Source: Candidatus Omnitrophota bacterium (GTDB taxonomy: Bacteria > Omnitrophota > Gorgyraeia > Gygaellales > Profunditerraquicolaceae). Taken from it: DNA of 64,000 nucleotides. Location: the NCBI GenBank assembly GCA_028712255.1, contig JAQTQJ010000002.1, forward strand, positions 22,846 through 86,845, written 5' to 3'. The notes under the pieces are model-generated. The model saw only the letters and a list, made by a program, of their open reading frames with translations, did no database searches and was not told the origin of the DNA. How positions within the stretch are numbered: position 1 is the first letter of the stretch; every line of letters starts with the position of its first letter. Position numbers and translations under genes: made by a program. This document shows, piece by piece, positions 2,871 through 63,700 of the stretch.

Positions 2871-3278
2871 GTATCCCCCTCCCCTTGTGGGAGGGGAAAG
2901 GGGCGGGGTAGGTGAAGGGCAAATTGACATCCACTGCCAGGAAGTTAAGGAATAATTCCACAGAAACTGAAAAATGCCTCTGGCAGGCGCTTCGTTACCA
3001 TGGGCTTGGGGTTAAGTTTCGCAGGCAGGCTGTTATCGGCCGGTATATCGTTGATTTTGTATGTTTTGAAAAGAAATTGATTATTGAAGTTGACGGTGGA
3101 CAGCATTCATCATCACAGGAAGATATTGAACGTGATCAATGGCTGCTTAAGCAGGGGTTCAAGATTTTAAGGTTTTGGAATCATGATGTGCTTGGCAATC
3201 AAGAGGGAGTTTTATCTAAGATAGTTGATTCTTTAAAATTGCCCCCTCCCTATCCCTCCCCACAAGGGGGAGGGTATC
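2871..3278 (+). mobile_element. Compact DUF559-endonuclease cassette bounded by ~37-bp GC-rich imperfect inverted repeats, each itself a palindrome
   Basis: Left arm at 2871-2908 is gtatccccctccccttgtgggaggggaaaggggcgggg. The reverse complement of the right arm at 3241-3278 aligns to it at roughly 30 of 36 positions. The arms are far more GC-rich than their surroundings. Confidence 0.45.
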
Positions 3279-5649: not shown

Positions 5650-7216
5650 ATTTTATATCACTACTCCTATTTATTATGTGAATGCATCCCCGCATATCGG
5701 CCATTCATATACAAATATTGCCGCAGACACCCTTGCCCGCTATAACCGTAATATTCTAGGAAAAGAAAATGTCTGGTTTCTTACCGGGACCGATGAACAC
5801 GGCCAAAAAATAAAGAAAGCTGCCGATGATGCAGGGCTTTCACCAATTGAATTTGTCGATAAAGTAGTACTGCAGTTTAGGGATCTATGGAAGAAGCTTG
5901 AGATATCCAATGACGATTTCATCCGCACGACTCAAGGCAAGCATATTAAGTGCGTACAAAAGGCGCTTCAGATTGTATATGACAAAGGGGATATTTATGA
6001 AGGTAAATATGAAGGCTGGTATTGTACTCCTTGTGAGACATTCTGGCCCCTTTCGCAAATTACTGATAAGCCGCACGGCAATGGTTTGGCCTCCACTGGC
6101 CAAAGCCATAGCCTTTGTCCGGATTGTAAACGGCCACTTGAAAAAATAGTTGAAACTAATTTTTTCTTCAAATTATCAAAATATCAAGATTGGCTGATTA
6201 AATACATTAAAGATACTGATAATAATCCAGAGCGTATTCATTATATCCAACCGGCTTCCAGAAGGAATGAAGTCTTGGGTTTTTTAGAGAATAATAAACT
6301 GGAAGATCTTTGTATTTCCCGCCCCATAGAACGGCTCAGCTGGGGTATACCTTTACCTTTTAGCGCAAAGCATGTTACTTATGTTTGGTTTGATGCCCTG
6401 ATTAATTATATCAGCGCGGTTGGGGAGTTTGACGCGCAAAATATCTATCGCTCCGCTTGGTGGGATAAGGATGTAAGGGTTGTACATTTGGTAGGTAAAG
6501 ATATTTTAAGGCATCATGCTGTTTACTGGCCGATTATGTTGGAGGCTCTGGGTATAAGGCAGCCGGACACAATATTTGCTCATGGCTGGTGGATGATTAA
6601 CGAAGATAAAATGTCCAAGTCACGCGGTAATATGGTTAATCCAGTTGAAATGGTAGATAAATTTGGCATAGACGTATACCGTTATTTTCTTCTGCGTGAT
6701 GTGCCATTTGGTTTAGATGGTAATTTTTCAGAAGAAGCTATAATTAAAAGATTCAACGGTGATTTAGCCAATGATTTAGGCAATCTGATATATCGCACAC
6801 TAACGATGATCGAGAAATATTATTCGGGTAAAATACCGGATTTGGATATTTATAATACTGGTTATGATGTTAGTGGCCAGAATATAAAAGATACGATAAA
6901 AAATCTGCATCAAGCAGTTTATGCTTCTTTAAATTGGGGTAATGATTTTAGCCTGGCACTTGAGAAAATTTGGGAGGTTATAGGTATAACAAATAAGTAT
7001 GTTGAAGAGACCAAGCCCTGGAACCTGGTAAAAGAGGGTAAGGTTGAGCAGTTGCAAGCTTTTATCTGTTTATTAGTTGAGGCGATTAGAAAAATTGGCA
7101 TAGAGATTGCTCCTTTTATGCCAAAGACCGCAGAATCTATTTTTTTGCAATTAGGCGGCAAAGAGATTAAAAAAGGAGCGCCTTTATTCCCTCGTATTGA
7201 AACCAAAAAGAAATAA
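5639..7216 (+). CDS. metG: Methionine--tRNA ligase
   Basis: HIGH motif (PHIGHSYT), KMSKS motif (KMSKSRGN) and a CPDC zinc knuckle. Confidence 0.9.
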   Translation: MANKFYITTPIYYVNASPHIGHSYTNIAADTLARYNRNILGKENVWFLTGTDEHGQKIKKAADDAGLSPIEFVDKVVLQFRDLWKKLEISNDDFIRTTQGKHIKCVQKALQIVYDKGDIYEGKYEGWYCTPCETFWPLSQITDKPHGNGLASTGQSHSLCPDCKRPLEKIVETNFFFKLSKYQDWLIKYIKDTDNNPERIHYIQPASRRNEVLGFLENNKLEDLCISRPIERLSWGIPLPFSAKHVTYVWFDALINYISAVGEFDAQNIYRSAWWDKDVRVVHLVGKDILRHHAVYWPIMLEALGIRQPDTIFAHGWWMINEDKMSKSRGNMVNPVEMVDKFGIDVYRYFLLRDVPFGLDGNFSEEAIIKRFNGDLANDLGNLIYRTLTMIEKYYSGKIPDLDIYNTGYDVSGQNIKDTIKNLHQAVYASLNWGNDFSLALEKIWEVIGITNKYVEETKPWNLVKEGKVEQLQAFICLLVEAIRKIGIEIAPFMPKTAESIFLQLGGKEIKKGAPLFPRIETKKK

Positions 7217-23181: not shown

Positions 23182-23586
23182 GGGGGTGAAAGGGTTCGAC
23201 TTAAGATATGTCGGATAAAAGCAGCATGCCGCGGACGCATGGTTAGCCGCGTTAATAATCCGTGCACAATTCAAACGCAAACACGACAGTGTCACGTTTA
23301 GGAACATTTGTCCAGCCGTCTTTTGCGGCTAGACCGATGTTTCTTCCAGCCTACTGCCCTAATTAAGGCAGTAGCCTCTAACCGTCCAGCCTACGGGATG
23401 GATTAGGGCCTTGGTAGGATAGTCTCGGCGGTTAGCCTTCCAAACTGGGATGAAATCGAAAAGGCTGCGCTTTGCAAATCCTGCCTTATAGAAGTTGCAA
23501 AGCTAAGACAAATTATAAGGCTAAGCATGTAGCGGCTTCTATTCGATTACTTAGGGACGGCGGTTCAATTCCGCCCACCTCCACCA
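23182..23586 (+). ncRNA. ssrA: Transfer-messenger RNA (tmRNA)
   Basis: 5' end GGGGGUGAAAGGGUUCGAC and 3' end GGACGGCGGUUCAAUUCCGCCCACCUCCACCA form a tRNA-Ala-like acceptor/T-arm with encoded CCA. The gene lies immediately downstream of smpB. The tag ORF could not be resolved. Confidence 0.85.
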
Positions 23587-31003: not shown

Positions 31004-31078
31004 CGGGGAGTGGCTCAGTTTGGCTAGAGCGCTTGCTTTGGGAGCAAGAGGTCGTGAGTTCAAGTCTCACCTCCCCGA
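31004..31078 (+). tRNA. tRNA-Pro (anticodon UGG)
   Basis: Cloverleaf with C1-G72 acceptor CGGGGAG/CUCCCCG, D arm GCUC-AGUUUGGCUA-GAGC, anticodon stem-loop CUUGC-UUUGGGA-GCAAG, T arm GUGAG-UUCAAGU-CUCAC, discriminator A. No encoded CCA. Confidence 0.85.
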
Positions 31079-31399: not shown

Positions 31400-31680
31400 G
31401 CGCCTGTAGCTCAAATGGATAGAGCACCTGCCTTCCAAAGGAGCCTCTATGGGGAAATAAAACTCATAGAGTGCATGTGGCTGTATGCAAGGAAATCCTT
31501 ATTTTTTAAGGATCACTTGCAGGCAACCCCCGCTATAAGCGGGGAGAGTCCTCAGAGACTATACGCCACACACCTGTAAAGGTGAAGACATAGTCCAGAC
31601 CGCAACAAGTGTTTCTGGCCGGAGTAATCCGGTGCGGTAAGCTAAGCCGGTTGTTGGCCGTTCGATTCGGCCCAGGCGCA
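31400..31680 (+). tRNA. tRNA gene interrupted in the anticodon loop by a ~207-nt group I intron; inferred tRNA-Arg (anticodon UCU) after splicing
   Basis: 5' acceptor GCGCCUG (31400-31406) and 3' strand CAGGCGC-A (31673-31680) are perfectly complementary across 281 nt. D arm GCUC-AAAUGGAUA-GAGC and T arm GGCCG-UUCGAUU-CGGCC are canonical. Exon 1 ends at …CCUGC-CUU (31434) and exon 2 begins after a G at CUAAGCCGG (31642). The anticodon assignment depends on the exact splice sites. Confidence 0.6.
31435..31641 (+). other. Putative group I intron (no ORF)
   Basis: Contains a P7-like pairing agACTAtacg … acaTAGTCcagac and several stem-loops (cctctatgggg/ctcatagag; cccgc-tataa-gcggg). Terminal G sits before exon 2 and a U before the 5' splice site. 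Size is comparable to the smallest known tRNA group I introns. Confidence 0.5.
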
Positions 31681-31817
31681 TTTAAATAGTATAAAGAATC
31701 GAACGGAAGGGGGTGTGGGGGAAAAGTGATGTCCCCCACGCTTTCGGGGTGACAGCGAACGAAGTGAGCGCCATAGGGGCAGAGCCCCTATGGGGAGCGA
31801 TCCGCCATAGGCGGAGC

Positions 31818-31846
31818 GCGACAAGTTCGATTCGGCCCAGGCGCAT
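31818..31846 (+). repeat. Direct repeat of the 3' end of the intron-containing tRNA (gttcgattcggcccaggcgcat), about 140 bp downstream
   Basis: A 22-nt exact copy of 31660-31681 preceded by a degenerate T-arm. The spacer is rich in small palindromes (cataggggcagagcccctatgg; tccgccataggcgga). Confidence 0.45.
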
Positions 31847-31853
31847 AAAATTT

Positions 31854-33080
31854 ATGGAAAACTGGAAAAAAATATTCACAATTATCGCAATTGTTGTTAT
31901 CTTTTTTAGCTTTGCCTATGCCTTTCTCTTAGTGGAAGCTAAAAATATAATTGCAGAAAAGATTGCACAGGTAACCGGCCACTCTACCACTATAAGTAAG
32001 CTGGATATTAAACCGCCGCTAAATCTTGAGATAAGAGACCTGGAGATCCAAGGCCTGCTGAAGGCTGGTTATATTTATATATCGCCGAGCATTCCTAACC
32101 TTTTATTTGGCAGAATTGCTCTTAATAAAGTTAAAATTGTAGGACCGCAGCTTACTTATCAGCGTTTAGCTGTGCCTGTTCCAGTACAAGAGAGCAGTAT
32201 CTTGGTTGTGGAAACTGTACCTGCGGCTGTTGCGCCTGCGCCTGTTATAACGCCTGCTCCTGCCGCCGCTGCGCAGCATAAAGTTTTGCCCGTAACCATA
32301 AAAAGCCTGAAAGTTTATTCTGGTAAGTTAGATTTTATCGATTCAACAGCAAAAAGCGGGGTCATAAAAGTTATGGTTAAGGATATTTACTTTTACCTAA
32401 CTAATTTATCTACTGTTGTTAAGGATTCCGTAACTAATTTTAGTTTAAAAGGCAATATTTCTTGGAATAGCGGTGAGCCTGACGGCAGGCTCCTTGCGCA
32501 GGGATGGATAAATGTTTATAAGAAGGATATGTTGGCTACTTTAAAGATTGAAAATATCGACGCCATTGTTTTTTATCCTTATTATTCAACTTGGGTGGAT
32601 TTGGAGAAGGCGCGCATTGATAAGGCTAAGTTAAATTTCAGCAGTAATATTAAAGGGGTAAATAATGATGTTGCGGCGGTTTGCCACTTAGAATTAGCTG
32701 ATATCGTGCGTAAGGTGCGGGCTCCTGAGGAGCCGCAGCAAAAGGCAGAGCGCCTGACTGACGCGGTGCTGGATATGTTTAAAAACATGAATCAAGGAAA
32801 AGTAGTTTTGGATTTTACTCTGCATACAAAAATGGATCAGCCGGTTTTTGGGTTTGGCGATATAAAATCCGCGTTTGAGGGAAAACTTATGCAGGGCAGG
32901 GCTCAAGCCGGCTTGCGGCCTCAAGACATGTTGCTATTTCCGGCTAAGATGCTGCAGAACGGAATTAAGAGCGGAGTAGATTTCTCTAGCGCCGCGGTTG
33001 ACGGAGTATTTGCTGTGGGTAATGGAATAAAGGAATTTTTTGAAGACGTTATAAATAAACCGGCTCCGGCGGCAAATTAG
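31854..33080 (+). CDS. Membrane-anchored DUF748/AsmA-like protein
   Basis: N-terminal signal anchor (IFTIIAIVVIFFSF), then a repetitive beta-rich body. Upstream ORF extension 31713-31853 overlaps the tRNA repeat and was discounted. Confidence 0.45.
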   Translation: MENWKKIFTIIAIVVIFFSFAYAFLLVEAKNIIAEKIAQVTGHSTTISKLDIKPPLNLEIRDLEIQGLLKAGYIYISPSIPNLLFGRIALNKVKIVGPQLTYQRLAVPVPVQESSILVVETVPAAVAPAPVITPAPAAAAQHKVLPVTIKSLKVYSGKLDFIDSTAKSGVIKVMVKDIYFYLTNLSTVVKDSVTNFSLKGNISWNSGEPDGRLLAQGWINVYKKDMLATLKIENIDAIVFYPYYSTWVDLEKARIDKAKLNFSSNIKGVNNDVAAVCHLELADIVRKVRAPEEPQQKAERLTDAVLDMFKNMNQGKVVLDFTLHTKMDQPVFGFGDIKSAFEGKLMQGRAQAGLRPQDMLLFPAKMLQNGIKSGVDFSSAAVDGVFAVGNGIKEFFEDVINKPAPAAN

Positions 33081-41328: not shown

Positions 41329-41781
41329 ATGTGGGAGTCATACAGAGACATCATCCGGAGCTATCCTAGAATTCCCCTCTTTGAAGAAAGGCGTTTGATT
41401 CTCAAAGCTCAAAAAGGTTCAAAGAAGAGTAAAGATGAGCTTGTCCTTAGCCACGTTAGTTTTTTAATCTTTAGAATCCATAAAATCGCATTTCCTTCGT
41501 TGGTTCGGTCCTTTGGAGAGGATCTACTAGCAGAAGCTATCCTTATCGTTTATAAGAAGATCGAAAGCTATGACCTTAATTACTGTGATAAGCATGGCAA
41601 TCCTAATCCAGTTAAATTTACTTCTTACATTTGGAAGCGAATCGATGGGTTCATAATCGATGCTTTAAAGAAAGAGCTCAGCGAGTCAAATTATTACGAT
41701 AGATACAGCGGATACGTCCTTAAAAATGGGGATTTATCGTTTATGTCCGGGTCAATAGAGTCGGACAATTTTATCTCTTGA
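41329..41781 (+). CDS. Sigma-70 region-2-only protein (sigma-factor-like; region 4 absent), paralog 1
   Basis: EERRLILKAQKGSKKSKDELVLSHVSFLIFRIHKIA…GEDLLAEAILIVYKKIESYD…FTSYIWKRIDGFI follows the sigma-70 region 1.2/2.1-2.4 pattern. The ~150-aa length leaves no room for regions 3 and 4. Confidence 0.55.
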   Translation: MWESYRDIIRSYPRIPLFEERRLILKAQKGSKKSKDELVLSHVSFLIFRIHKIAFPSLVRSFGEDLLAEAILIVYKKIESYDLNYCDKHGNPNPVKFTSYIWKRIDGFIIDALKKELSESNYYDRYSGYVLKNGDLSFMSGSIESDNFIS

Positions 41782-41994
41782 TTTATCAGAGAGTTACGAA
41801 ATTCCGAGCCAAAAAAGACCGGACAAAACGGACATATTGGCGAGGAAATGCCTTCTCTAAACCTAGAATATTCTTGATATATTGAGGTATCGCGCCTATA
41901 ATTAGTCTAATAAATTAAGAGAGGTTTCCCCTCAGGTAATACGAGAGTGACGCCATTTCTAAATGGAAGTAGCATATTAGGAGAAAAGGGAAGA

Positions 41995-42576
41995 ATGATG
42001 GAGAATAAAAGGTTAGTTGGTAAAAATATCTTAGTTACCTTAATAAGCAAAATTTTAATTGTGATTTTGATTTTCAGTATTGTTCTAATTGGAGAATTGT
42101 GGATTTGTAACAAACCAATCTTTGCCGAGAATCAGGGAGTAACAATAACTACCGACAAAACAGAATATAGTCAGGGAGATACAGTGACAATAATAGGGAG
42201 AAATGGCCTAGATAAATCAATATGGGGTTTTAATTCTTGCGGTGGTAGGCCGTTTTGGGGTCTTCAGAAATTAACCGATGGAACATGGAAAAATCTGGAT
42301 TTATGTCTCCCATTAAAGAATAAAAAAGACTGGGAATGTATCATGGTGCTTTGCGAGAGGTCAGAACCCCGAGAGCTAAAATCAAAATTAGAGATTAAGG
42401 ATGAGTGGCACATTACATTTTTTTGCGACTTTATTAACGAAAAAGGCATTTTATTGGATAAACCTAAAGAAAGAATAATTAAAAAAGGCATTTATAGATT
42501 GGTATTATCTTACGTATTTGATGAAGATAGTATTGATAGGGAAATTATCTATTCTAACGAATTTAAGATTAAATAA
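41995..42576 (+). CDS. Hypothetical membrane-anchored/secreted protein
   Basis: N-terminal hydrophobic anchor, then a Cys-containing beta-rich domain. Flanked by short gagaggtttccc(c/t)tc direct repeats at 41918 and 42721. Confidence 0.4.
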   Translation: MMENKRLVGKNILVTLISKILIVILIFSIVLIGELWICNKPIFAENQGVTITTDKTEYSQGDTVTIIGRNGLDKSIWGFNSCGGRPFWGLQKLTDGTWKNLDLCLPLKNKKDWECIMVLCERSEPRELKSKLEIKDEWHITFFCDFINEKGILLDKPKERIIKKGIYRLVLSYVFDEDSIDREIIYSNEFKIK

Positions 42577-42838
42577 AAATTATCCTTGATGGTTATCGGG
42601 AAAATAGGGATAGCGGCCATTTCATATCTCATCACCCCAGTAATCAGCGAGGAATTACCTTTCTAAAGTCGCAGTATTGGGCATATATCAAGGTAATTTC
42701 TATATATAAGTGTTATTTGGAAGCAGAGAGGTTTCCCTTCGGCTCACAGGAGAGGGACCCCCCCATATCTTCGTTTACCGTTTCGGCGAGGGTTTCTCTG
42801 CCAGAATTATTTGTTATTTAGGTTGTCAATAAAAATAG

Positions 42839-42886
42839 TTGACATCGTTCTCAAATATGATACAATTGTTCTCAAAAGGAGAACAA
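42839..42886 (+). promoter_or_regulatory. Promoter (TTGACA, 16 nt, TACAAT) plus a perfect 8-bp inverted-repeat operator overlapping the RBS
   Basis: TTGTTCTC aaaag GAGAACAA sits immediately before the ATG at 42888. A gttctcaaa half-site is repeated upstream. Confidence 0.4.
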
Positions 42887-42887
42887 T

Positions 42888-43460
42888 ATGCTGCAAAGCT
42901 TAATAGCTTCAAAAACTCGTCAAACTCTTCTTAAGGCATTCTTTGAGGCGCCTGAGATAGAGTATTATACCCGCCAATTAGCTAGTAAATACCATATGTC
43001 TGTTGGGACGCTTCATAGGGAACTGCAAAAACTGAGTACCTCTGGGATACTTAAATCACGTAAAATCGGTAACATAAAGCTGTTTTCCTTAAATAAACAA
43101 AATTCTATTTATGAAGAAATTAAAAACATTATTTCTAAAACGCAAGGGGTAATAAGGTTTATAAAAGATGCCTTATTTGGCATAAAAAGCATTAAAGTTG
43201 CTTTTATATACGGTTCTCTTGCTAAAGGAGATGAGCGGCAAGACAGCGATGTAGATATATTTTTGATAGGGGATAGTATAGATGATAATGAATTGGTGAT
43301 AAAAATTAGCAGTCTGGAAAAGAAATTATTTAAAGAAGTTAATTATACATGTTATACAGAAAATGAATACAAAAAGGAAAAAAAGAAAAAGAATTCGTTT
43401 GTTTTAGAAGTAATAAAGGGCAAAAAGATATTTATCAAAGGAGATGAAGGTGACCTCTGA
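42888..43460 (+). CDS. Winged-HTH plus minimal nucleotidyltransferase (MNT-type antitoxin-like) protein
   Basis: N-terminal HTH (…LASKYHMSVGTLHRELQKL…), then the nucleotidyltransferase motif GSLAKGDERQDSDVDIF. Confidence 0.7.
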   Translation: MLQSLIASKTRQTLLKAFFEAPEIEYYTRQLASKYHMSVGTLHRELQKLSTSGILKSRKIGNIKLFSLNKQNSIYEEIKNIISKTQGVIRFIKDALFGIKSIKVAFIYGSLAKGDERQDSDVDIFLIGDSIDDNELVIKISSLEKKLFKEVNYTCYTENEYKKEKKKKNSFVLEVIKGKKIFIKGDEGDL

Positions 43461-43541
43461 TAGCTTTTTGAATGAGTATATAGAAAAAAATTTATAAAAC
43501 CGGAAAAGATAGGCCTTGATCAGATTGAAAAATTCGATTAT

Positions 43542-43697
43542 ATGAGGAAAAATCGTAATAATTTTATCTATGAACCTTGGAAAATCAATATTTCCATGAC
43601 TGACGCAAAAAGTGCTTTAAAATTAGCTCAGGAATTTGTCAAGATTATTAAAGACGAAATTCAGCGAGAACATCCGCAGATTAATTTTAAATTTTAA
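43542..43697 (+). pseudogene. Possible decayed HEPN-domain partner of the upstream nucleotidyltransferase
   Basis: Short ORF (MRKNRNNFIYEP…ALKLAQEFVKIIKDEI) resembling the C-terminal half of HEPN domains. The upstream part of that frame is closed by a stop at 43473. Confidence 0.3.
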
Positions 43698-43910
43698 GTT
43701 TTGTTTTTTGCCACTTAAAAATTGCGGCGGTTTTTTGAAAAGATAACGCTAGGCGAGGCGCGGGGCATTATAGATGTTTCATTAAGCACCTTGGCCTATT
43801 GGATATAGCCAAGTGTCCTGCATTCTGCAGGAAGATCAGCTTTACTCCCCGGGGGGTACAAATAGTTCTCTTTGGGTTTTATGGAAAATTTTCTTAAAAG
43901 GAGAGAGGCC

Positions 43911-45134
43911 ATGTTCAAACAATTCATTGCTGGTAGTTGCTACTCTTATATTTTAAGTTCAAATGAAGAAGCATTAGTTATCGATCCGCATATCAGCCTG
44001 TTGGATGAATACAGCGAATATTTAAAGAAAAATAGGCTTATGCTGAAGCTTATCATAGACACGCACACACATGCCGACCATTTTTCTTTAGCATCCGTAT
44101 TAAAGAAGAAATTTGGTGCGCAGGTATTGATGCATGAAAAAGCAATTTCTAGCGTTGCGGATAGGCGCTTAAAGGATAATGAGCAAGTCGCCATAGGCTC
44201 CAGTAGCTTTAAAGTCATATATACTCCTGGTCATACAGATGATGCCGTTAGTTTATACGGCGAAAATAAATTATTTTCCGCAGATGCCCTCTTAATCGGC
44301 AGTGTCGGCCGTACGGATTTTCAGAATGGTTCTCCTGAGTCTATGTTTGATACATTAAAAAAGCTTAAAGCTTTTCCGGGAGAGACGGTAATTTTTCCCG
44401 GCCATGACTATCATGAAAAACGTTCGTCTACATTAGCTAAAGAGAAAGGAGAAAATCCTTTTTTAAAAGAAGAGGATAAAGAGGCATTTGTTAAAAACAT
44501 GCGTTCAAAGGTTATTCCCAAGCCTTTTAATATAGACAATATTATCCGCGTAAACCAGAAAGGCCAAGTCGCGGCATTAGAGATGATTGAGCCTAGGGAT
44601 GCCCTGGTAATTATAGAGAAAGATCCTCAGGCCAAATTACTGGATGTACGTTCTGCCTTGGAATTCAGTGAAGTGCATATTAAAGATTCAATTAATATCC
44701 CCATAGATATGCTTTCTGCTAAAATCAATGACCTAAGTCAATCTATGCAAAGCTATATTGTCCTTTGCCGCACCGGTAATCGTTCCCCTATGGCTGCGGA
44801 TATGTTAATACAGTCTGGTATTCATGGCGTTAAGGTAATGCAAGGCGGTATGACGCGTTGGCAGAAGGAAAGGTTACCTGTTATCAAAGGTGAGGGCGGC
44901 ATATCACTAGAACGCCAGGTCCGGCTTATTGCCGGAAGTTTAGTGTTATTGGGGATACTTTTATCATGGATTGTGCATTGGGTGTTTATTTTTATCCCGG
45001 TATTTGTCAGCTGCGGCCTTATTTTTTCCGGCTTGACTGATAACTGCATAATGGGTATGCTGTTAATGAAATTGCCTTATAACAAAAAATTATATAAAAT
45101 AAAACTTGGCGGTGGAACATGTGCCATGGGATAA
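43911..45134 (+). CDS. Three-domain MBL-fold hydrolase (persulfide-dioxygenase-like) + rhodanese + DUF2892 membrane tail
   Basis: HTHADH metal motif, rhodanese active-site loop CRTGNRS, and a C-terminal two-helix DUF2892/YgaP-like segment. ATG 43911 lies behind an aaaaggagagagg RBS. Confidence 0.75.
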   Translation: MFKQFIAGSCYSYILSSNEEALVIDPHISLLDEYSEYLKKNRLMLKLIIDTHTHADHFSLASVLKKKFGAQVLMHEKAISSVADRRLKDNEQVAIGSSSFKVIYTPGHTDDAVSLYGENKLFSADALLIGSVGRTDFQNGSPESMFDTLKKLKAFPGETVIFPGHDYHEKRSSTLAKEKGENPFLKEEDKEAFVKNMRSKVIPKPFNIDNIIRVNQKGQVAALEMIEPRDALVIIEKDPQAKLLDVRSALEFSEVHIKDSINIPIDMLSAKINDLSQSMQSYIVLCRTGNRSPMAADMLIQSGIHGVKVMQGGMTRWQKERLPVIKGEGGISLERQVRLIAGSLVLLGILLSWIVHWVFIFIPVFVSCGLIFSGLTDNCIMGMLLMKLPYNKKLYKIKLGGGTCAMG

Positions 45135-45226
45135 TAAAATAATGCTTTCCTAAAAAGTGTTATATAATGCCTAGTAAGAGATTGAGAAAGGTTATGCCGT
45201 TAGCATGAGATTGTGCCGTGATAAAC

Positions 45227-46675
45227 ATGAATAAAAAAATAGCTATAATAGGAGCGGGAGTGGGAGGGTTGGCTGCTGCTGCCCGGTTAGCCAAACAGGG
45301 ATATTCTGTTGAGGTTTTTGAGAAGCTGGGTGAATGCGGCGGCAGGAACCATTTGCTTGAAGACAAGGGCTTTAAGTTTGACATGGGGCCTTCGTTTGTG
45401 CTTATGCCGGATTTTTTCGAGGAGGTTTTTTCTTACTGCCGGGAGGATATAAAAGAATATTTGGATCTAAGAGCGATAGATCCTGGTTATACGATCTTTT
45501 TTCCTGACGGAGATTCACTTACGGTTTATAAGGATAGCGCAAGGACCAAAAATGAGCTTGAGAAGATAGAGCCGGGAAGCAGTATTGGTTTTGACGGTTT
45601 TATGCGGGAAACCGCCAAGATCTACCGAACAGTCAGGCCTCTGCTTTACGATTGTTTTACCACTAAGGCGGTATTTAACCCCCGTTATTGGGGGCTGCTG
45701 GGAAAAATCCGGGCTTTTGATTCTTACTGGCAACTGGCAAAAAAGTTCTTTAAGAGCGAGAAACTTTGTTATGCCTTTACCTTCGAGGCGATGTTTATGG
45801 GCGTTTCCCCATTTAATGCCCCGGCATTTTATAGCATAATCAGTTATGCTGACCACGTACAGAAAATATTTCATCCTATGGGCAGTATGTATCAGATTCC
45901 TCTGGCTTTGGAAAAGATGGCGAAAAAATTCGGAGCCCGGTTTCAGTACAATTCAGAGGTGAAGAAAATCAAGCCCAGTGGCGGGGAACTTATTTTGGAA
46001 TTAGACGGCCGGGAAGAGGCTTTTGATAAAGTGGTGGTGAATGCCGATTACGCTTACGCGCAGAGCGAGCTTTTAGGAAGGCGTATATCCAATTATAAGT
46101 ACTCTTGTTCGGTTTATCTTATCTATCTGGGATTAAAGCAAAAGGTAAGTGGGTTCGCTCACCATAATTTATTTTTTTCCAACGACCTTAAGAAAAACCT
46201 AAGCCAAATATTTAAAGAAAAGGCAATGCCTGATAATCCCTCTTTTTACGTGCATGTGCCGACAGTGACAGATTCCTCTTTGGCGCCTGTAGGCAAAGAG
46301 ATATTTTACATATTGGTTCCGGTAGCGAACCTGGAAAAGAACAAAGAAGATATTTCTAGGTATGAAGAGATGTTGCGCAAAATTACTTTTGACAAAATTA
46401 GCGAAAAATTAGGCAGCAGGATTGAGGATTTGATTGAGGTGGAACATAGATTCTACCCTAAGGATTTTATCGGCCGTTATAATATCAAATACGGCGCTAC
46501 TTTTGGCCTGGCGCATAATTTGATGCAAAGCGCTTTTTTTAGGCCCCCCAATTTTGACCATAAGATTAAAAATCTTTATTTTGTAGGAGCCAGCACCCAG
46601 CCGGGAGGAGGGCTACCCGTAGTAATTGCCGGTTCCCGGATTGTTGCTGATTTGATTACAGGCAAGGCGAAATAG
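45227..46675 (+). CDS. crtI: Phytoene desaturase-family FAD-dependent oxidoreductase (CrtI/CrtN-like)
   Basis: IAIIGAGVGGLAAAARLA…E…GGR dinucleotide-binding fold and a C-terminal GASTQPGGG-type motif. Confidence 0.75.
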   Translation: MNKKIAIIGAGVGGLAAAARLAKQGYSVEVFEKLGECGGRNHLLEDKGFKFDMGPSFVLMPDFFEEVFSYCREDIKEYLDLRAIDPGYTIFFPDGDSLTVYKDSARTKNELEKIEPGSSIGFDGFMRETAKIYRTVRPLLYDCFTTKAVFNPRYWGLLGKIRAFDSYWQLAKKFFKSEKLCYAFTFEAMFMGVSPFNAPAFYSIISYADHVQKIFHPMGSMYQIPLALEKMAKKFGARFQYNSEVKKIKPSGGELILELDGREEAFDKVVVNADYAYAQSELLGRRISNYKYSCSVYLIYLGLKQKVSGFAHHNLFFSNDLKKNLSQIFKEKAMPDNPSFYVHVPTVTDSSLAPVGKEIFYILVPVANLEKNKEDISRYEEMLRKITFDKISEKLGSRIEDLIEVEHRFYPKDFIGRYNIKYGATFGLAHNLMQSAFFRPPNFDHKIKNLYFVGASTQPGGGLPVVIAGSRIVADLITGKAK

Positions 46676-47525
46676 GAAGGTTGTTTAAGGTTGCCTTTTT
46701 TATGTAGGCAATGATTTCTTTTGTGGTATCATCAGGGGTCGATGCCCCAGCAGTAATCCCCACCGAATTTACCCCTTTAAACCAGGCAGGCTTTATATCT
46801 TTTTTTGATCGGACCCAATAGCTCCTATCGTTTAGCGATTTTGAGATTTCGTAAAGCCTTTTAGTATTAGCGCTGGTCTTTGAACCGATAATAATCATAA
46901 CGTCATTTTCCAAAGGCATATTTTTCATCTCTTGCTGTTTTAAACGCGTCGGGAGGCAGATAGTATTAAATAATTTTAATTCTTTGATATGCGGTTTTAA
47001 TAGATCAAAAATTTTCATTACCTTTTCAATATTCTGCGTAGACTGAACTACAAGAGTAGCCTTTTTTATTTTTTTGATCTTTTTCAAATGTACGCTTTGC
47101 AGGCTATCGATTAGTATTGGTTTCTTTTTCAGCTGCCCTATGATTCCGATTACCTCGTCATGGTTTTTATCTCCGATTAATATAACCGTCTGTCCATGGC
47201 TCTGGGCATTATGGGCGATTTTATGGATTTCCTTTACCATGGGGCAAGTAGCATCGACAATTTTGTATCCGAGCTTACGGGCTTGTTCGATAATATTAAG
47301 GCCGGCTCCGTGGGCGCGGATTAAAAAGATTTTATTTTTTCCGCAGCCGAGCCCCTGAGTTTTTTTTAAGCCCGCCTTTTCCAGCCTTTTAGCCACCTCT
47401 TCGTTATGCACAATATTGCCGAGCATATAGACGTTCTTATTACCGGCGAGTGTTTTATAGGCGATGTCAATCGCCCTTTTTACGCCAAAACAGAAACCTG
47501 CTGATTTAGCCAGATTTATTTTCAT
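46656..47525 (-). CDS. ispH: 4-hydroxy-3-methylbut-2-enyl diphosphate reductase
   Basis: MKINLAKSAGFCFGVKRAI N-terminus and conserved Cys (…DATCPMV…, …NTIC…). Confidence 0.9.
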   Translation of the reverse strand: MKINLAKSAGFCFGVKRAIDIAYKTLAGNKNVYMLGNIVHNEEVAKRLEKAGLKKTQGLGCGKNKIFLIRAHGAGLNIIEQARKLGYKIVDATCPMVKEIHKIAHNAQSHGQTVILIGDKNHDEVIGIIGQLKKKPILIDSLQSVHLKKIKKIKKATLVVQSTQNIEKVMKIFDLLKPHIKELKLFNTICLPTRLKQQEMKNMPLENDVMIIIGSKTSANTKRLYEISKSLNDRSYWVRSKKDIKPAWFKGVNSVGITAGASTPDDTTKEIIAYIKKATLNNLPISPCL

Positions 47526-48367
47526 AGATACTTTCCTTTAAATATTATCTTTGAGACAGCGATTATTTTTTTCGGGGTGCTTACGCAGGCACGTTTGGTA
47601 AAGACATCAAAATCATTTTTTTCTATGGAGTTTAGTATTCCGGAGTAGATGTCAGCCATAGCGCAGGCCACAAAACGGGAATTTAGGTCAGCAAGCATCT
47701 TTATCCCTTGTTTGGCTTTTTCGTAATATTCTCTTGAGCGGGCTATTTGGAATTTCATCAATGCTTTAAAATTCTCATTTATTTGTGAACGAAAGATATC
47801 GCTTTCTGATACTTGAAAGCGCTGCATTTCATCTTCAGGGAGGTAGATCCTGTTTCGATTAAAATCTTCTTTGATGTCGCGCAGGATATTAGTTAATTGC
47901 ATGGCTACGCCCAAACTTATGGCATAATCTGCTGCCTTTGGGTTTGTGTAGCCGAATATCTCTAACATGATTAGCCCCACTACGCCGGCTGCCTTGTAAC
48001 AGTAATCATATAATTCCTCAAAGTTTTTGTAGCGGTTCTTATATAAATCCATATACATGCCTTCTATGAGGGCGTCAAAATATTTTTTTTGGACATGGTA
48101 TTTGTTTATAGATTGCTGAAAGGCTAATAAGAGAGGATCGGCAGGGGGCGCGTTTTTGTAGACAGAATCAATTTTTTGTTGAAGTATAGCTAGGCTGCCT
48201 AAGGTTGAAGGATCTCGTTTACCATCTACAGCTTCATCGCTGATGCGGCATATTGCATATACCGCATATGCGGCGGATCTTTTTTCTTTTTTTAGGAATC
48301 GGGAAGAAAAATAGAATGTTTTGGCATGTTGTTTGGTGATCGCCTCTGCTAATAGCAAACCTTCCAT
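47522..48367 (-). CDS. crtB: Phytoene/squalene synthase-family protein (CrtB/CrtM-like)
   Basis: Head-to-head prenyltransferase motifs: YAICRISDEAVD (first DxxxD region), MQLTNILRDIKED (second Asp-rich region). Confidence 0.8.
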   Translation of the reverse strand: MEGLLLAEAITKQHAKTFYFSSRFLKKEKRSAAYAVYAICRISDEAVDGKRDPSTLGSLAILQQKIDSVYKNAPPADPLLLAFQQSINKYHVQKKYFDALIEGMYMDLYKNRYKNFEELYDYCYKAAGVVGLIMLEIFGYTNPKAADYAISLGVAMQLTNILRDIKEDFNRNRIYLPEDEMQRFQVSESDIFRSQINENFKALMKFQIARSREYYEKAKQGIKMLADLNSRFVACAMADIYSGILNSIEKNDFDVFTKRACVSTPKKIIAVSKIIFKGKYL

Positions 48368-48452
48368 GATTATATTCTACAATAAATAATCTAAAATCAA
48401 AACCAAATTTTACCTTTGAAAAACACAATATTTGCAATACAATATATGTGTT

Positions 48453-48761
48453 ATGTCAGAATATATGGTAGTTTTAATTTTGTCCATAGTAGTGCCTTTT
48501 CTGTTAAGTTTTTGGCCCGGACTTAAATTTTACCGCAATATCCGTTCCCTTTTTATCAGCGTATTTCTCATAGTTATTATCTTCGGCAGTTGGGATATAT
48601 TCGCAACATATAGAGGCCACTGGTACTTTAATCCAAGAGGCGTCTGGGGTTTTAGGGTTATTAACCTTCCGCTGGAAGAGGTATTGTTTTTTGTGGTTAT
48701 ACCTTTTTGTTGTATTTTTACTTGGGAAGCGATTAAGTATCTTGGGGGAAGATTTAAATGA
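48453..48761 (+). CDS. Lycopene cyclase-domain small membrane protein (heterodimeric CrtYc/CrtYd type)
   Basis: ~100-aa, 3-TM protein with PLEE motif (NLPLEEVLFFVVIP). Translationally coupled to a second homologous half. Confidence 0.6.
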   Translation: MSEYMVVLILSIVVPFLLSFWPGLKFYRNIRSLFISVFLIVIIFGSWDIFATYRGHWYFNPRGVWGFRVINLPLEEVLFFVVIPFCCIFTWEAIKYLGGRFK

Positions 48762-49057
48762 AAGAGTATACTATCTTAGGTATAGCCGCGGTTTTATTGA
48801 CTGTCTACTTAGATAAGGCCAGCCATATTAACCTGCTTAAGAAAAAGGGGTACTATGTATTTATCCTGGTAATTCTATTTTTTAAAATGTTGGTGAACGG
48901 TTATTTAACCGGCAAGCAAATTGTAATGTATCGGCCGCAATTTTTTTTGGGATTAAGGATAGGGAGTATTCCTCTGGAAGATTTTTTATTTGGCTTTAGC
49001 ATGGTAACCATGACCATAATTTTCTGGGAGTATTTTAAAAAGAGGCAGGCATGTTAA
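48758..49057 (+). CDS. Lycopene cyclase-domain small membrane protein (second half)
   Basis: Paralogous ~99-aa membrane protein with PLED motif (IPLEDFLFGFSM). Confidence 0.6.
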   Translation: MKEYTILGIAAVLLTVYLDKASHINLLKKKGYYVFILVILFFKMLVNGYLTGKQIVMYRPQFFLGLRIGSIPLEDFLFGFSMVTMTIIFWEYFKKRQAC

Positions 49058-49947
49058 AAAGATCAATATTATTTTTCGTTGCATTTTCTTTTTTAGGGAT
49101 AAATTTATCTTACGGTTTAGATTGGAAAGAGTTGCATGAAAAAGCAGATAATATGATTTTATCGGATATCTTAGCCGATGTTAAGGCAAGGCCTGATTCT
49201 ATAAATGATTTATATGTTCTGGGTTTGGTCTATTTGAATTTACATAAGGATAAAGAAGCAGGAGAGGCTTTTAATAAAGTTTTAACTTTAGACCCTAGGG
49301 CAATCGAGGCAAAATGGGGAAAGGCTGAAGTCCTGCGCCGGCGGCATCAGCCGCAGAAAAGCGAAGAGCTGTTAAGCGGGGTATTAAAACAGAATCCCGA
49401 TTTCCCCCCGGCCTCTATAACCCTGGCTTATATAAGATACACCCAGATGAATTTTAAAGCAGCGGTCAGATTGGCTATAACGGTATTGAGACAGGGAGAA
49501 AAAAATGTTGACCGGGGCAATCAGGTGCGTGCCCATTTGATATACGGAGGTACAAAGGGTATGATCGCGCACTACGGAGGCCCTCTCTCAAAGATCATCA
49601 ATGGCACAGCGGTATTACCGAGCTTAAAGGCGGCGGAGAGATTACAGCCTGAATCAGCGGAGGTCAAATTTGGCTTGGGTAGTTTTTATCTTTTGGCGCC
49701 TGCTTTAGCCGGGGGAAATTTGGAAAAGGCAGAAGCTTATCTCAAAAAAGCAGTTGAAAATGATCCGCTATTTGCTGATGCTTATGTAAGATTGGGTCAG
49801 CTTTATAAAGTTAAGGGTGATGACGTAAGATATAATAAATATTTAAATAAAGCGCTGGAGATTGATCCTCAGAACGAATTAGCACTGGATATCAAAAGTG
49901 GCACATGTAAATTTATTTGTTTTAATAAAGGCATAGAATCAAATTAG
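49051..49947 (+). CDS. Secreted TPR-repeat protein
   Basis: Signal peptide, then several TPR-like helical repeats (…AGEAFNKVLTLDP…, …AEAYLKKAVENDP…, …NKYLNKALEIDP…). Confidence 0.5.
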   Translation: MLKRSILFFVAFSFLGINLSYGLDWKELHEKADNMILSDILADVKARPDSINDLYVLGLVYLNLHKDKEAGEAFNKVLTLDPRAIEAKWGKAEVLRRRHQPQKSEELLSGVLKQNPDFPPASITLAYIRYTQMNFKAAVRLAITVLRQGEKNVDRGNQVRAHLIYGGTKGMIAHYGGPLSKIINGTAVLPSLKAAERLQPESAEVKFGLGSFYLLAPALAGGNLEKAEAYLKKAVENDPLFADAYVRLGQLYKVKGDDVRYNKYLNKALEIDPQNELALDIKSGTCKFICFNKGIESN

Positions 49948-50196
49948 TTGTAAGTTTACCGGTCGCTGTTCGATGTAAAAGTATAACCGATTACGGAATA
50001 GGAAAGGCCCCCAAGCAATATCGTTCTCTGGTGGTAACTATTTTTGGGATTTTTATGTATGAAAAAATAGCGTAGCGGCATTGGAGCAGGCCAGGACGGT
50101 GGCAGTTAATGTGCTTGTTTTCGGAGAACTTTTTCATCTTTTTAGCTGCCGGTCTCTAACCCGGTCGATGTCCGCTCTCGGAGTGTTCTCTAACAG

Positions 50197-50628
50197 GTGG
50201 ATATTCTTCGGCGTTATCCTAGAATTTCCCTATCTGAAGAAAGACGTTTGATTCACAAGGCTCAAAATGGTTCAAAGAAAAGCAAGGAAGAGCTTGTATT
50301 GCGTCATGTTGGCTTTGTAATTTTTAGAATTCACAAAGTAGCGTTTCCTGCCTTGATCCAGAGATTTGGAGACGACCTGCTTGAAGAAGCCATCCTGATT
50401 ATCTATAAAAAAATCGAAAGCTATAACCTTGATTACCGCGATAAGAAAGGCAATCCTAATCCGGTGAAATTTACCTCTTACATTTGGAAACGGATCGATG
50501 GTTTTATAATCGTTTCATTAAAGAAGGAGCTTGGCGAGTCAAATTATTACGATAGGTATAGCGGATATGCCCTTAAAATTTATAAAAAGACACTTTCCAG
50601 CATAAAATTGGTGCAGTTTTCTGATTGA
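50197..50628 (+). CDS. Sigma-70 region-2-only protein, paralog 2
   Basis: About three-quarters identical by eye to the 41329 paralog over the whole protein (EERRLIHKAQNGSKKSKEELVLRHVGFVIFRIHKVA…FTSYIWKRIDGFII). GTG start. Confidence 0.55.
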   Translation: MDILRRYPRISLSEERRLIHKAQNGSKKSKEELVLRHVGFVIFRIHKVAFPALIQRFGDDLLEEAILIIYKKIESYNLDYRDKKGNPNPVKFTSYIWKRIDGFIIVSLKKELGESNYYDRYSGYALKIYKKTLSSIKLVQFSD

Positions 50629-50892
50629 GATGGAAAGCGTCTGTATCTTTGTATTTTCAATAGCGGTTGTAGGTCTTTTTATGTTGCGATGTTTCTGGAG
50701 TTAGGGTATTGCGTTTATTAGTTGTATATCGGCCGTATTCCTAGGTGTTTTTACGGATTCACCCCTTCAAAAAAAGTTAAGAAAAGGTCTAAATACACTA
50801 AATACATATAAGATTAGAGTATAAACTCTAAAAACTAATGCTATAATTATAGAAATGACCTTTCAAGTGAATTTGGAGAAATATTTAACTAT

Positions 50893-63561: not shown

Positions 63562-63700
63562 AGCTAAGATTTTATAGTCTCATAAAAATGGGTTCAGGAG
63601 TATCTTCCTGAAGGTTTAGATGGTCGGGCCGCCATCTGCGATTATCGCAGGTGTCGGTTTTTTATTTTTTAGCGTTTAAGTTAAAAGAAAGGAGTCTTTT

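Follow-up and report, generated by a model that had tools for sequence, protein, structure and literature searches.

The gp55 protein of phage T4 is a sigma factor made of region 2 only. It directs initiation, binding the beta-prime clamp helices and reading a -10-like element only, and it is a precedent for a region-2-only protein that can be a working specificity subunit. Sigma factors can also be split, as in Bacillus subtilis SigO-RsoA, phage SPO1 gp33/gp34 and Tn916 Orf7/Orf8. RsoA carries regions 2.1-2.2 only.

In a 64-kb stretch of DNA from Candidatus Omnitrophota bacterium (the window; positions count from its first nucleotide, and the features mapped individually below are on its + strand), two genes, referred to here as A (41329..41781) and B (50197..50628), encode stand-alone proteins that, like gp55, have a single sigma-2-type domain and no region 4. 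A sequence-only reading of this DNA had held that such proteins cannot function as conventional sigma factors, which overlooks gp55. However, A and B have no detectable sequence relationship to gp55 (their PHROG match is to the generic sigma family 351 only), their family is cellular, with no relatives in 2.9 million viral contigs, and neither a gp33-like co-activator nor a link to the sliding clamp was found among its variable neighbours. With the split sigma factors they share that they are small sigma-derived fragments that would act on polymerase. Those systems have an adjacent partner gene, whereas the family has no nearby region-4 ORF or conserved partner, and it spans regions 1.2-2.4, in contrast to RsoA. 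Group 3 (sigma-F/FliA/RpoH-type) and ECF sigma factors are homologous to it in regions 1.2-2.4 and share its fold, but the family lacks regions 3 and 4 and has an insertion of eight residues.

A family of free-standing sigma region 2 proteins

The ORF of A encodes 150 aa and that of B, from a GTG start, 143 aa. The two proteins are identical at 100 of 126 residues (79%; BLASTP, E = 2e-74), and the DNA is 80.8% identical over 370 bp (41356-41725 versus 50209-50578; blastn). The DNA similarity begins and ends within the coding sequence, and the flanks are unalignable. No third copy was found in the 64-kb window using tblastn. A has the canonical form of the family, with the C-terminal tail ...NGDLSFMSGSIESDNFIS. 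The core of B is intact, its first five residues are missing relative to A, and ...KIYKKTLSSIKLVQFSD stands in place of the canonical tail.

Homologs of A and B amount to 687 matches of ~150 aa. Among the 120 matches listed of these 687, almost all are 127-160 aa in length, and a precomputed Pfam domain is listed for none of them. From 1.84 billion proteins searched, 166 representatives of the family were obtained at 50% identity; the long matches in this search were distant full-length sigma factors only, with Pfam regions 2, 3 and 4 present. The source organism, where named, is nearly always Candidatus Omnitrophota, with a few contigs in differently labelled bins. Each member of this previously unstudied family, preserved in Omnitrophota, is a sigma-70 region 1.2-2.4 domain standing on its own, ~125-160 aa long.

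The assignment to region 2 is based on PHROG 351, on the profile match to sigma-F, on the matches to full-length sigma factors and on fold, and not on Pfam Sigma70_r2. PHROG 351 ('RNA polymerase sigma factor') is matched with E = 2e-6 by A and E = 2e-8 by B. Compared with PDB, the family profile A4 matches sigma-F (1l0o_C, E = 8.9e-6) over 91 residues that cover regions 1.2-2.4, an alignment in which the family has the 8-residue insertion; against RpoH, E = 0.0027. The AlphaFold model has a pLDDT of 86 overall and >90 for residues 1-120, and sigma region 2 accounts for 46 of its 47 top Foldseek matches in PDB. Isolated sigma-E and SigC region-2 structures give target-normalised TM-scores of 0.71-0.78 (rmsd 2.2-2.5 Å), and region 2 of sigma-S and sigma-32 is also among the fold matches. 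Pfam Sigma70_r2 (PF04542) gives 19.8 bits for A and 12 bits for B, below the curated gathering threshold of 24. All 36 family members tested fall below this cut-off, although 22 of them have E <= 0.01 (4.9e-4 at best).

Both proteins carry the region-2-type domain without regions 3 or 4. They end ~20-30 residues beyond region 2.4, and region 4 was not matched in either using Pfam or NCBIfam. With a local region-4 model, no sigma region-4 helix-turn-helix was detected in the six frames of the window, and the reading frames 3' of A and B contain no continuation of a sigma gene. Relative to a full sigma-70 factor, region 2 is present and region 4 is absent.

The sequence-only reading had described A and B as same-strand paralogs, about three-quarters identical in protein and ~80% in DNA, that encode a region-2 module alone. 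This description agrees with the measurements, and the short form is how the members of a large family are natively built rather than a product of frameshifts: a region 4 revealed by correcting frameshifts had been allowed for, and none occurs in any frame or downstream. The expectation that Sigma70_r2 would recognise the domain held in part, in that similarity to sigma region 2 is evident by PHROG, profile and fold, whereas the Pfam scores remain under the threshold.

Conserved residues and age of the two copies

D65, L67, Y85, G90, Y100, W102 and K103 keep a conservation of 90% or more even among proteins of only 22-30% identity, although the conservation of the helix in the genome loci is partly by construction, because these loci were found by peptide patterns taken from it. 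The most conserved residues are D65, L66, L67 and E69 in region 2.2 and F97, Y100, W102 and K103 in the melting/-10 helix. The former correspond to the sigma positions that contact the beta-prime clamp helices, and the latter to the DNA-melting and -10-binding helix of sigma. The loop between regions 2.2 and 2.3 is longer by eight residues and nearly invariant. The position of the tandem tryptophans of sigma-70 region 2.3 is not conserved in the family; extrapolating from the sigma-F alignment, they presumably fall at K103 and R104.

A and B are anciently separated paralogs, both kept by selection. Between them dS is 1.09 and dN/dS is 0.097, and the longest identical run of DNA is 22 nt. Proteins from other samples are nearer to B than A is: the core of B is 89.6% identical to P0053 and P0056, both 150 aa with the canonical tail, and only 79% identical to A. 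We therefore reject the idea that A and B are recent direct repeats, given the dS, the 22-nt run and the closeness of B to foreign orthologs. The suggestion that they form a substrate for deletion of the intervening DNA fails as well, since old divergence (dS ~1.1) and a maximal identity of 22 nt make them poor deletion substrates.

A multi-copy promoter and RNA element at the end of A

The 3' end of A coincides with the start of a conserved multi-copy promoter-plus-small-RNA element, undescribed before, that we name ELEM. It is composed of TGTCC/GGACA boxes, a near-consensus promoter and a structured RNA, with a terminator in full copies, and the RNA from promoter to terminator is ~120-130 nt. 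The first hairpin, ATGTCCGGGTC...GTCGGACAAT and then a T-rich run (41743..41769; inverted repeat, fold energy -13.3 kcal/mol), falls within the last 13 codons of A; a TGTCC-N(8-20)-GGACA hairpin also opens ELEM copies without a sigma gene. The TGTCC motifs are reminiscent of the GTC core found in ECF-type -10 elements.

Based on alignments of 13 and 46 copies, the upstream region (41787..41857) includes the box CAGAGAGTTACG (41787-41798), the direct repeat CCGGACAAAACGGACA (41819-41834) and a small hairpin, GCGAGG..CCTTCTC (41840-41857). The promoter, TTGATA-17-TATAAT (41874..41902), agrees with the consensus at 11 of 12 positions. Sites this good number only three in the 64-kb window, this one included, and both the -35 and -10 hexamers are conserved in the same alignments. 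The leader hairpin HP1, GAGAGGTTTCCCCTC...GAGAGTGAC (41919..41951), is recognised by the covariance model R1 (36.3 bits at 41913-41999). Compared with full units, the copy after A is truncated: it lacks HP2 and the terminator and reads into an ORF at 41995-42576.

A second copy, truncated at its 5' end (42643..42761; nhmmer E = 1.7e-10, R1 39.1 bits), has the small hairpin, a degenerate promoter and HP1 (42726-42761) and is located upstream of a gene for an MNT-type nucleotidyltransferase. Thirty nucleotides past the stop of B, a 3' remnant (50658..50731) comprises the terminator loop and 3' arm, the T-run and the post-terminator segment. It was matched by eye and aligned to the units of L003, L025 and L028 (nhmmer E = 0.0029), and its R1 score is weak (14.6 bits). 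Absence of the tail, boxes, promoter and HP1 at B implies an internal deletion. Rfam returned no match at E <= 10 for window positions 41600-42100 and none at E <= 1 at the element in five loci with full ELEM copies. Two variants of the leader hairpin occur, and no residue of the proteins tracks the variant.

ELEM is directly 3' of 17 of the ~66 family genes in genome loci, including every canonical-tail member with enough downstream sequence; in canonical family genes the final codons themselves form its first hairpin. The hairpin and the GGACA repeats are kept after family genes only ~55-60% identical to A, and the hairpin is also found 3' of distant members (L057, L064-L066). It occurs <=70 nt from the stop of 14 of 69 family genes versus 13 of 897 other ORFs, a ~14-fold enrichment. 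Within a metagenome sample selected by the ELEM hairpin alone, 12 of ~134 copies have a family gene upstream at a fixed distance of 141-142 nt (166-167 nt in two cases). A family gene is the commonest upstream neighbour of ELEM (14 of 93), the next cluster having 3. About 85-90% of ELEM copies are without an adjacent family gene, and the linkage might thus be due to no more than a preferred location.

Like Neisseria Correia, pneumococcal BOX and enterobacterial REP/BIME elements and multicopy small-RNA genes, ELEM is short, modular, multi-copy and intergenic, and its hairpins, functional-looking promoter and frequent truncation are further likenesses. It differs from these in that it encodes an RNA of ~120-130 nt without an Rfam match, in its preferred junction with one particular protein gene, and in that all copies in family-gene loci are co-oriented with the family gene.

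Genomic context

Upstream of A is an ars-type cluster encoding an SBF/ACR3-type transporter and the low-molecular-weight phosphatase ArsC. The genes between A and B encode a phytoene desaturase-like oxidase, LytB/IspH, phytoene synthase and two lycopene-cyclase subunits, and a lipid cluster lies 3' of B (AMP-ligase-ACP-acyltransferase, CDP-alcohol phosphatidyltransferase and CTP transferase). The sequence-only reading had these surroundings right but placed A and B each at the head of a gene cluster, a position that neither clearly has. The start codon of A is 7 nt downstream of the arsC stop, so that A seems to close the ars unit, with the separate, conserved promoter of ELEM beyond it; B stands alone between gaps of ~250 nt and ~265 nt.

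The MNT-type gene (HTH-nucleotidyltransferase, 42888..43460; Pfam Polbeta / NTP_transf_2; PADLOC PDC-M05A, E = 6.7e-55) has its own promoter and palindromic operator (42839-42886) and is context, outside the sigma module. A truncated HEPN remnant (43524..43694; tblastn against the HEPN of L013, E = 1.6e-13), of which only the last 57 codons are left, with stop codons upstream, is its decayed partner.

Across 71 contexts, no neighbour of the family genes is conserved at any position. Many family genes adjoin defence or toxin-antitoxin genes (SoFic, MNT/HEPN), and MNT/HEPN, RelE, serine recombinase and IS3 genes recur nearby. Five loci have a family gene without the tail that overlaps a 350-aa Fic gene or lies directly against it, and the Fic example in L028 matches the PADLOC model SoFic (E = 7.9e-61). 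With such neighbours, a function that does not involve the host polymerase would fit as well. Most family genes do not adjoin Fic or toxin genes, and canonical members are found 3' of housekeeping-type operons, e.g. pst-phoU and ars. PADLOC gave no match for the family proteins. In ~20 of 79 loci the gene is <=~500 bp from a contig end.

Possible roles of the family

We tentatively favour, at a little under an even chance, a role for the family as a sigma-derived, -35-independent accessory or specificity factor of RNA polymerase, possibly acting at ELEM units. The protein would dock on the polymerase core at the sigma-2 site and read single-stranded non-template DNA without a -35 contact, as a minimal specificity or accessory subunit unlike a conventional sigma factor. 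From the physical coupling of the gene to ELEM, we infer that ELEM-type units would be the site of action. Here the protein could support initiation or pausing at TGTCC motifs or, alternatively, change read-through of the ELEM terminator. It counts against a role at ELEM that its promoter is a normal -35/-10 promoter, for which a special factor is not needed. It is doubtful that ELEM, taken as a phylum-wide promoter-leader-terminator cassette, has its dedicated trans-acting factor in this family. Such a factor would ride RNA polymerase, recognise the TGTCC/GGACA motifs or the leader, and determine whether polymerase continues into the variable genes that follow each cassette, which often have defence or accessory functions. 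If true, cellular bacteria would have a sigma-derived system of a new class, acting in elongation, antitermination or -35-independent initiation, in which one to three regulator genes per genome serve dozens of targets.

An isolated sigma-2 domain would most simply work as a decoy or anti-sigma-like modulator, filling the sigma-2 site on the beta-prime clamp helices and lowering or re-partitioning holoenzyme formation with no DNA specificity. The conserved region 2.2-type residues and the absence of region 4 agree with this, but conservation across the family is as high in the 2.3/2.4 helix (Y100, W102, K103, G107) and the enlarged loop for specificity as on the core-binding surface, which is more than a pure decoy needs, and the conserved linkage to ELEM would be unexplained. 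We consider it rather unlikely. Were A/B-type proteins one half of a split sigma factor, they would be completed by a helix-turn-helix protein with region 4 whose gene lies elsewhere. The peripheral members P0246 (27.1 bits) and P0268 (22.7 bits) do pass the threshold (22 bits) of PF12645 HTH_16, the Tn916 Orf7-type family. Acting jointly, Tn916 Orf7 and Orf8 switch on the promoter of their own genes and bring about read-through transcription (PMC5812530). A split sigma is nevertheless unlikely here: A and B have no PF12645 match at E up to 10, the 71 contexts lack a conserved neighbour, and no region-4 ORF is present in the window or beside family genes in ~1.5 Mb of loci, where the local model gave three matches, none both adjacent and co-oriented.

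Re-use of the sigma-2 fold outside host transcription, for example as an antitoxin, as a partner that regulates or senses for defence genes such as SoFic, or as a decoy for sigma-targeting phage proteins, would suit the five Fic loci, the recurring toxin, recombinase and IS3 genes, and the MNT gene and HEPN remnant that follow A. We give it a small chance only, given that most family genes are away from Fic and toxin genes, that canonical ones lie behind operons such as pst-phoU and ars, and that PADLOC matches and viral relatives are lacking. That A and B are fragments of decaying full-length sigma factors, or recent direct repeats marking a mobile or excisable 8.9-kb segment, is largely refuted and highly improbable. 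In its favour are the losses in B (five residues at the N-terminus, the canonical tail, most of its ELEM) and the proximity of contig ends, a usual sign of repeated or variable DNA. Against this, hundreds of homologs have the same ~150-aa length, the divergence of A and B is old and constrained (dN/dS 0.10), and the intervening segment contains ordinary carotenoid/isoprenoid genes and no recombinase. Of the full-length sigma factors, P0259 (442 aa) carries an insertion similar to that of the family, which hints at the family's ancestor.

Two sigma-like proteins reduced to region 2

The genes A and B belong to an uncharacterised, mainly Omnitrophota family of sigma-like proteins that consist of region 2 only, and this family is linked to an undescribed multi-copy element, ELEM, with a promoter and a predicted small RNA. 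Both genes are on the + strand of the window; A (41329–41781) has an ATG start and encodes 150 aa, and B (50197–50628) has a GTG start and encodes 143 aa. The sequence-only reading had called them same-strand paralogs, about three-quarters identical in protein and ~80% in DNA, and this was accurate: 100 of 126 residues are identical (79%; BLASTP, E = 2e-74), as is 80.8% of the DNA over 370 bp (41356–41725 versus 50209–50578). The DNA match is restricted to the coding core, flanking DNA does not align, and tblastn found no third copy in the 64-kb window.

The same reading assigned both proteins to a lone region-2 module and proposed a check with the Pfam Sigma70_r2 model. The similarity is present, but the scores (A 19.8 bits, B 12 bits) fall below the curated cut-off of 24. 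From NCBIfam, only the N-terminal halves of the SigY, SigW, FliA and WhiG models were matched, far under their cut-offs. The region-2 assignment is nevertheless established by four independent lines of evidence, which agree on a sigma-70-family domain comprising regions 1.2 to 2.4. PHROG 351 ('RNA polymerase sigma factor') matches ~100 residues of A (E = 2e-6) and of B (E = 2e-8). When the family profile was searched against 1.84 billion representative proteins, the matches beyond the family itself were full-length sigma factors (P0257, P0259 and P0269; E = 1e-6 to 5e-5), in which Pfam identifies regions 2, 3 and 4. Against the PDB, the profile of a diverse family alignment (A4) retrieved sigma-F (1l0o_C, E = 8.9e-6) from region 1.2 through the end of region 2.4, then RpoH (0.0027), with sigma-K, WhiG, SigW and sigma-E ranking lower; searches with a single sequence or a close-family profile returned nothing useful. 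An AlphaFold model based on A4 has a mean pLDDT of 86, with residues 1–120 above 90 and disorder after about residue 133, and 46 of the 47 PDB structures that Foldseek ranks highest against it are sigma region 2. Isolated sigma-E and SigC region-2 structures gave target-normalised TM-scores of 0.71–0.78 and an rmsd of 2.2–2.5 Å. Based on 30 close homologs only, the pLDDT was 54; adding distant members gave the confident model. An hhalign comparison of the family profile with E. coli sigma-E gave only a weak partial match (probability 33%), on which the assignment does not rest.

Full-length sigma factors hidden by frameshifts had been named as an outcome that would overturn the region-2-only reading. 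Neither the window, read in all frames, nor the surroundings of family genes in ~1.5 Mb of retrieved loci contain a region-4-like ORF, and no sigma continuation was found in the frames 3′ of A and B. The short form is not a product of frameshifts, and the reading as a lone region-2 module is supported. Family proteins are homologous to group 3 and ECF sigmas in region 2 but lack region 4. Relative to sigma-F, the loop joining regions 2.2 and 2.3 carries 8 inserted residues and is near-invariant across the family (consensus ...SYDLNYCDKxGNPNPVKF...). The full-length sigma P0259 (442 aa) has a similar insertion, which suggests that the family descends from such a sigma factor through loss of regions 3 and 4.

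Over the 126 codons common to A and B, dS is 1.09, dN is 0.106 and dN/dS is 0.097. Both cores have been under purifying selection, and the duplication, or separate acquisition, is old. The core of B shares 85–90% of its residues with many 150-aa proteins of other samples (89.6% with P0053 and P0056) but only 79% with A, so the two genes fall into different sub-lineages. For P0016, a 99%-identical protein, an exact-sequence look-up gave no recorded contig. The copies had also been proposed as a substrate for deletion of the 8.9 kb between them. The old divergence speaks against this, and with no more than 22 identical bases in a row, A and B are a poor substrate for homologous deletion. The intervening DNA contains ordinary carotenoid and isoprenoid genes and no recombinase.

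A large family maintained by selection

A search of 5.8 billion proteins retrieved 687 homologs. Among the 120 of these that were listed, almost all are 127–160 aa long, identities are 68–99%, and the named sources are Candidatus Omnitrophota/Omnitrophica or plain 'bacterium'; in one source the annotation is 'DNA-directed RNA polymerase specialized sigma subunit'. Family ORFs in 79 genome loci are mostly 125–160 aa, and a few of the contigs are in bins labelled Elusimicrobia, Planctomycetes or 'delta proteobacterium'. The gene is within ~500 bp of a contig end in ~20 of the 79 loci, as expected of multi-copy or variable DNA. Literature searches found no papers on region-2-only proteins in Omnitrophota.

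Among the residues best conserved down to 22–30% identity are D65 and L67 of region 2.2, Y85 and G90 of the inserted loop, and Y100, W102, K103 and G107 of the 2.3/2.4 helix. D65 and L67, together with E69 (present in 90% of the close set), align with the core-binding motif 'DLxxE' of sigma region 2.2. The proteins are free-standing sigma region-2 domains that form a large family maintained by selection.

A viral origin was rejected, as viral contigs contain neither relatives of the protein nor copies of the ELEM hairpin, and membership of a known defence system was rejected for the protein itself, since PADLOC gave no match to it. At one locus (L055, 8600–9274) an in-frame fusion joins the first ~74 residues of a family protein to a Schlafen AlbA_2-type domain; this 224-aa protein (P0166) is probably a disrupted or chimeric copy.

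Gene neighbourhood

An SBF/ACR3-type transporter gene precedes an arsC of the low-molecular-weight-phosphatase type. A begins 7 nt past the stop of this arsC and therefore looks like the last cistron of the arsC unit, not the head of the next unit. B is flanked by gaps of ~250 nt upstream and ~265 nt downstream. The proposal that each copy heads a gene cluster is thus not supported.

A comparison of 71 family-gene contexts showed no position with a conserved neighbour and, with no region-4 ORF alongside, a conserved operon partner was rejected. Genes for Fic, MNT/HEPN, RelE, a serine recombinase, an IS3 transposase, pst-phoU, arsC, and response regulators with histidine kinases recur nearby. 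The junctions upstream of family genes are short and have no common motif; a conserved left boundary was rejected, because upstream similarity occurs only where the upstream gene is in common.

Members without the conserved C-terminal tail (tail-less) overlap or abut a 350-aa Fic gene in an operon-like arrangement at five loci (L025 6133–7468, L028 6001–7468, L029 6001–7471, L030 6001–7468 and L014 237–~1750). The Fic protein of L028 matches the anti-phage defence model SoFic (E = 7.9e-61), and a full ELEM unit precedes the pair in L025 and L028. L030 also has two family genes 1.4 kb apart (4194–6411) with an opposite-strand IS3-family transposase gene between them, which interrupts the ELEM after the first family gene and leaves ELEM positions 3–52.

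A promoter and small-RNA element linked to the family

The ~175 nt 3′ of the A stop codon are 70–88% conserved in many loci with differing downstream genes. This element comprises a TGTCC...GGACA hairpin, a CAAAGAGTTACG box, GGACA direct repeats, a near-consensus promoter, a structured RNA and a terminator. At A, an inverted repeat ATGTCCGGGTC...GTCGGACAAT with a T-rich run (41743–41769) lies within the last 13 codons of the gene, followed by a CAGAGAGTTACG box (41787–41798), a direct repeat CCGGACAAAACGGACA (41819–41834), a small hairpin (41840–41857), the promoter TTGATA-17-TATAAT (41874–41902), one of three such sites in the 64 kb, and a first leader hairpin, HP1 (41919–41951). In full copies (L001 6440–6720; L025 5340–5710 and 7560–7930; L028 5670–5990; L034 5680–5990; also L005), HP1 is followed by a second hairpin (HP2) and by a long perfect hairpin with a T-run, a predicted intrinsic terminator. 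Because these succeed the promoter, its predicted product is a structured RNA of ~120–130 nt; in the copy at A, transcription would start near 41909–41912. Compensatory changes occur in 12 of 12 terminator pairs (RNAalifold and pair counting). HP1 is near-invariant, in the larger set partly due to the HP1-based search, and a second sequence variant of it retains the hairpin shape. ELEM has no Rfam match. A small hydrophobic peptide encoded in the terminator was rejected, since its reading frame is not conserved and the stem co-varies.

An nhmmer profile identified 46 ELEM copies in the 79 loci and two in the window (41781–41953 and 42643–42761), all on the strand of the family gene; neither this profile nor the covariance model R1 places a further copy in the window. 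ELEM lies immediately 3′ of 17 of the ~66 family genes with enough downstream sequence, including every member with the conserved C-terminal tail (canonical members). As a control for ascertainment bias, metagenome contigs were scanned with the HP1 pattern alone, which gave at least 120 loci; the covariance model has 140 hits in 100 of the 120 listed. ELEM occurs on more than 120 metagenome contigs, and on none of the viral contigs. Among the matches listed, a family gene ends at a fixed 141–142 nt (166–167 nt in two cases) upstream of 12 of ~134 HP1 copies, and no other gene precedes ELEM as often as the family does (14 of 93; the next cluster has 3). Downstream genes are highly diverse (51 of 68 singletons). 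Of 69 family genes, 14 have a match to a strict hairpin pattern no more than 70 nt from the stop, versus 13 of 897 other ORFs, and the hairpin, box and GGACA repeats are also found 3′ of family genes only ~55–60% identical to A (L057, L064–L066). ELEM copies without a family gene start with the same TGTCC...GGACA hairpin. The first ELEM hairpin therefore encodes the canonical C-terminal tail, whose conservation may reflect constraint on the DNA or RNA.

The gene most often directly 3′ of HP1 (7 of 68 among the matches listed, L080–L199, for example L137) starts ~24 nt after HP1 and encodes a 92-aa protein, GIY-YIG-like by eye (MWHVYIVECSDKTLYTG...).

In the window, A is a canonical member whose ELEM ends after HP1 and reads into an unannotated ORF (41995–42576) with a hydrophobic N-terminal stretch and no Pfam match. 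The second, truncated copy (42643–42761) is upstream of an MNT-type nucleotidyltransferase gene that matches PADLOC PDC-M05A (E = 6.7e-55) and whose HEPN partner is reduced to its last 57 codons (43524–43694). The two (42839–43694) look like a decayed toxin-antitoxin or defence pair; the HTH-nucleotidyltransferase gene comes with a promoter of its own, and its operator is a perfect palindrome. B lacks the first five residues and the tail, and its protein core is intact. Given the lost tail and a 74-nt ELEM 3′ remnant 30 nt after its stop (50658–50731, closest to the unit of L003), B looks like a module stripped of tail, boxes, promoter and HP1 by internal deletion. An ELEM remnant upstream of B was not supported.

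Possible action on RNA polymerase

Sigma factors are defined by two DNA-reading domains. Going by established sigma structures, a family protein would dock on the β′ clamp helices and contact non-template single-stranded DNA, and it could not use a −35 element because region 4 and the linker are absent. A pure decoy is made less likely by the conserved surface on the DNA side, and the absence of a nearby region-4 partner argues against one half of a split sigma. The split systems SigO-RsoA, SPO1 gp33/34 and Tn916 Orf7/Orf8 are analogous fragments, but no partner gene is adjacent to family genes. Two peripheral relatives score above the Pfam threshold for HTH_16 (Orf7-type), and A and B do not; Tn916 Orf7/Orf8 drive read-through transcription (PMC5812530).

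The closest analogue by function is T4 gp55, but family proteins share no sequence membership with it and have no phage link. To our knowledge, this phage protein is the only well-studied one working with region 2 alone. The present family is found in cellular organisms and numbers hundreds of proteins; purifying selection on it is strong, and the surfaces for core binding and DNA melting are retained. It would therefore show minimal sigma modules in use by bacteria themselves, and offers a tractable case for how a lone sigma region 2 acts on RNA polymerase, be it in initiation, pausing, antitermination or competition. For annotation, neither "sigma factor" nor "hypothetical protein" suits these genes.

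The deep, position-exact linkage suggests ELEM as the site of action. The TGTCC motif, with one + strand copy in the hairpin and three on the other strand, is similar to the GTC core found in −10 elements of the ECF type, for example TGTCAAA in the case of E. coli sigma-E (compare PDB 2map). Since the protein showed no co-variation with the two variants of the leader hairpin, and ELEM has an ordinary −35/−10 promoter, we treat action on ELEM as a hypothesis, and a rather improbable one. The linkage gives a concrete place to seek targets of the family protein, a useful lead because we know of no genetics and little culture-based work in Omnitrophota.

Other features of the window

A tRNA gene (31004–31078) is followed after ~350 nt by a group I intron match (31424–31617, 68.5 bits), outside the tRNA as called, and then by a 455-aa ORF (31713–33080); the tRNA and intron lie in a GC-rich kilobase (GC 0.50 versus ~0.39). 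The window also contains a tmRNA gene (23182–23586) and an nhaA-I riboswitch (63590–63637), and the related locus L001 has two fluoride riboswitches (1162–1236 and 3169–3232). All but one of the 64 one-kilobase bins (63) show positive GC skew, and almost every long ORF lies on the + strand, so the window appears to lie wholly on one replichore, with strong gene-strand bias.
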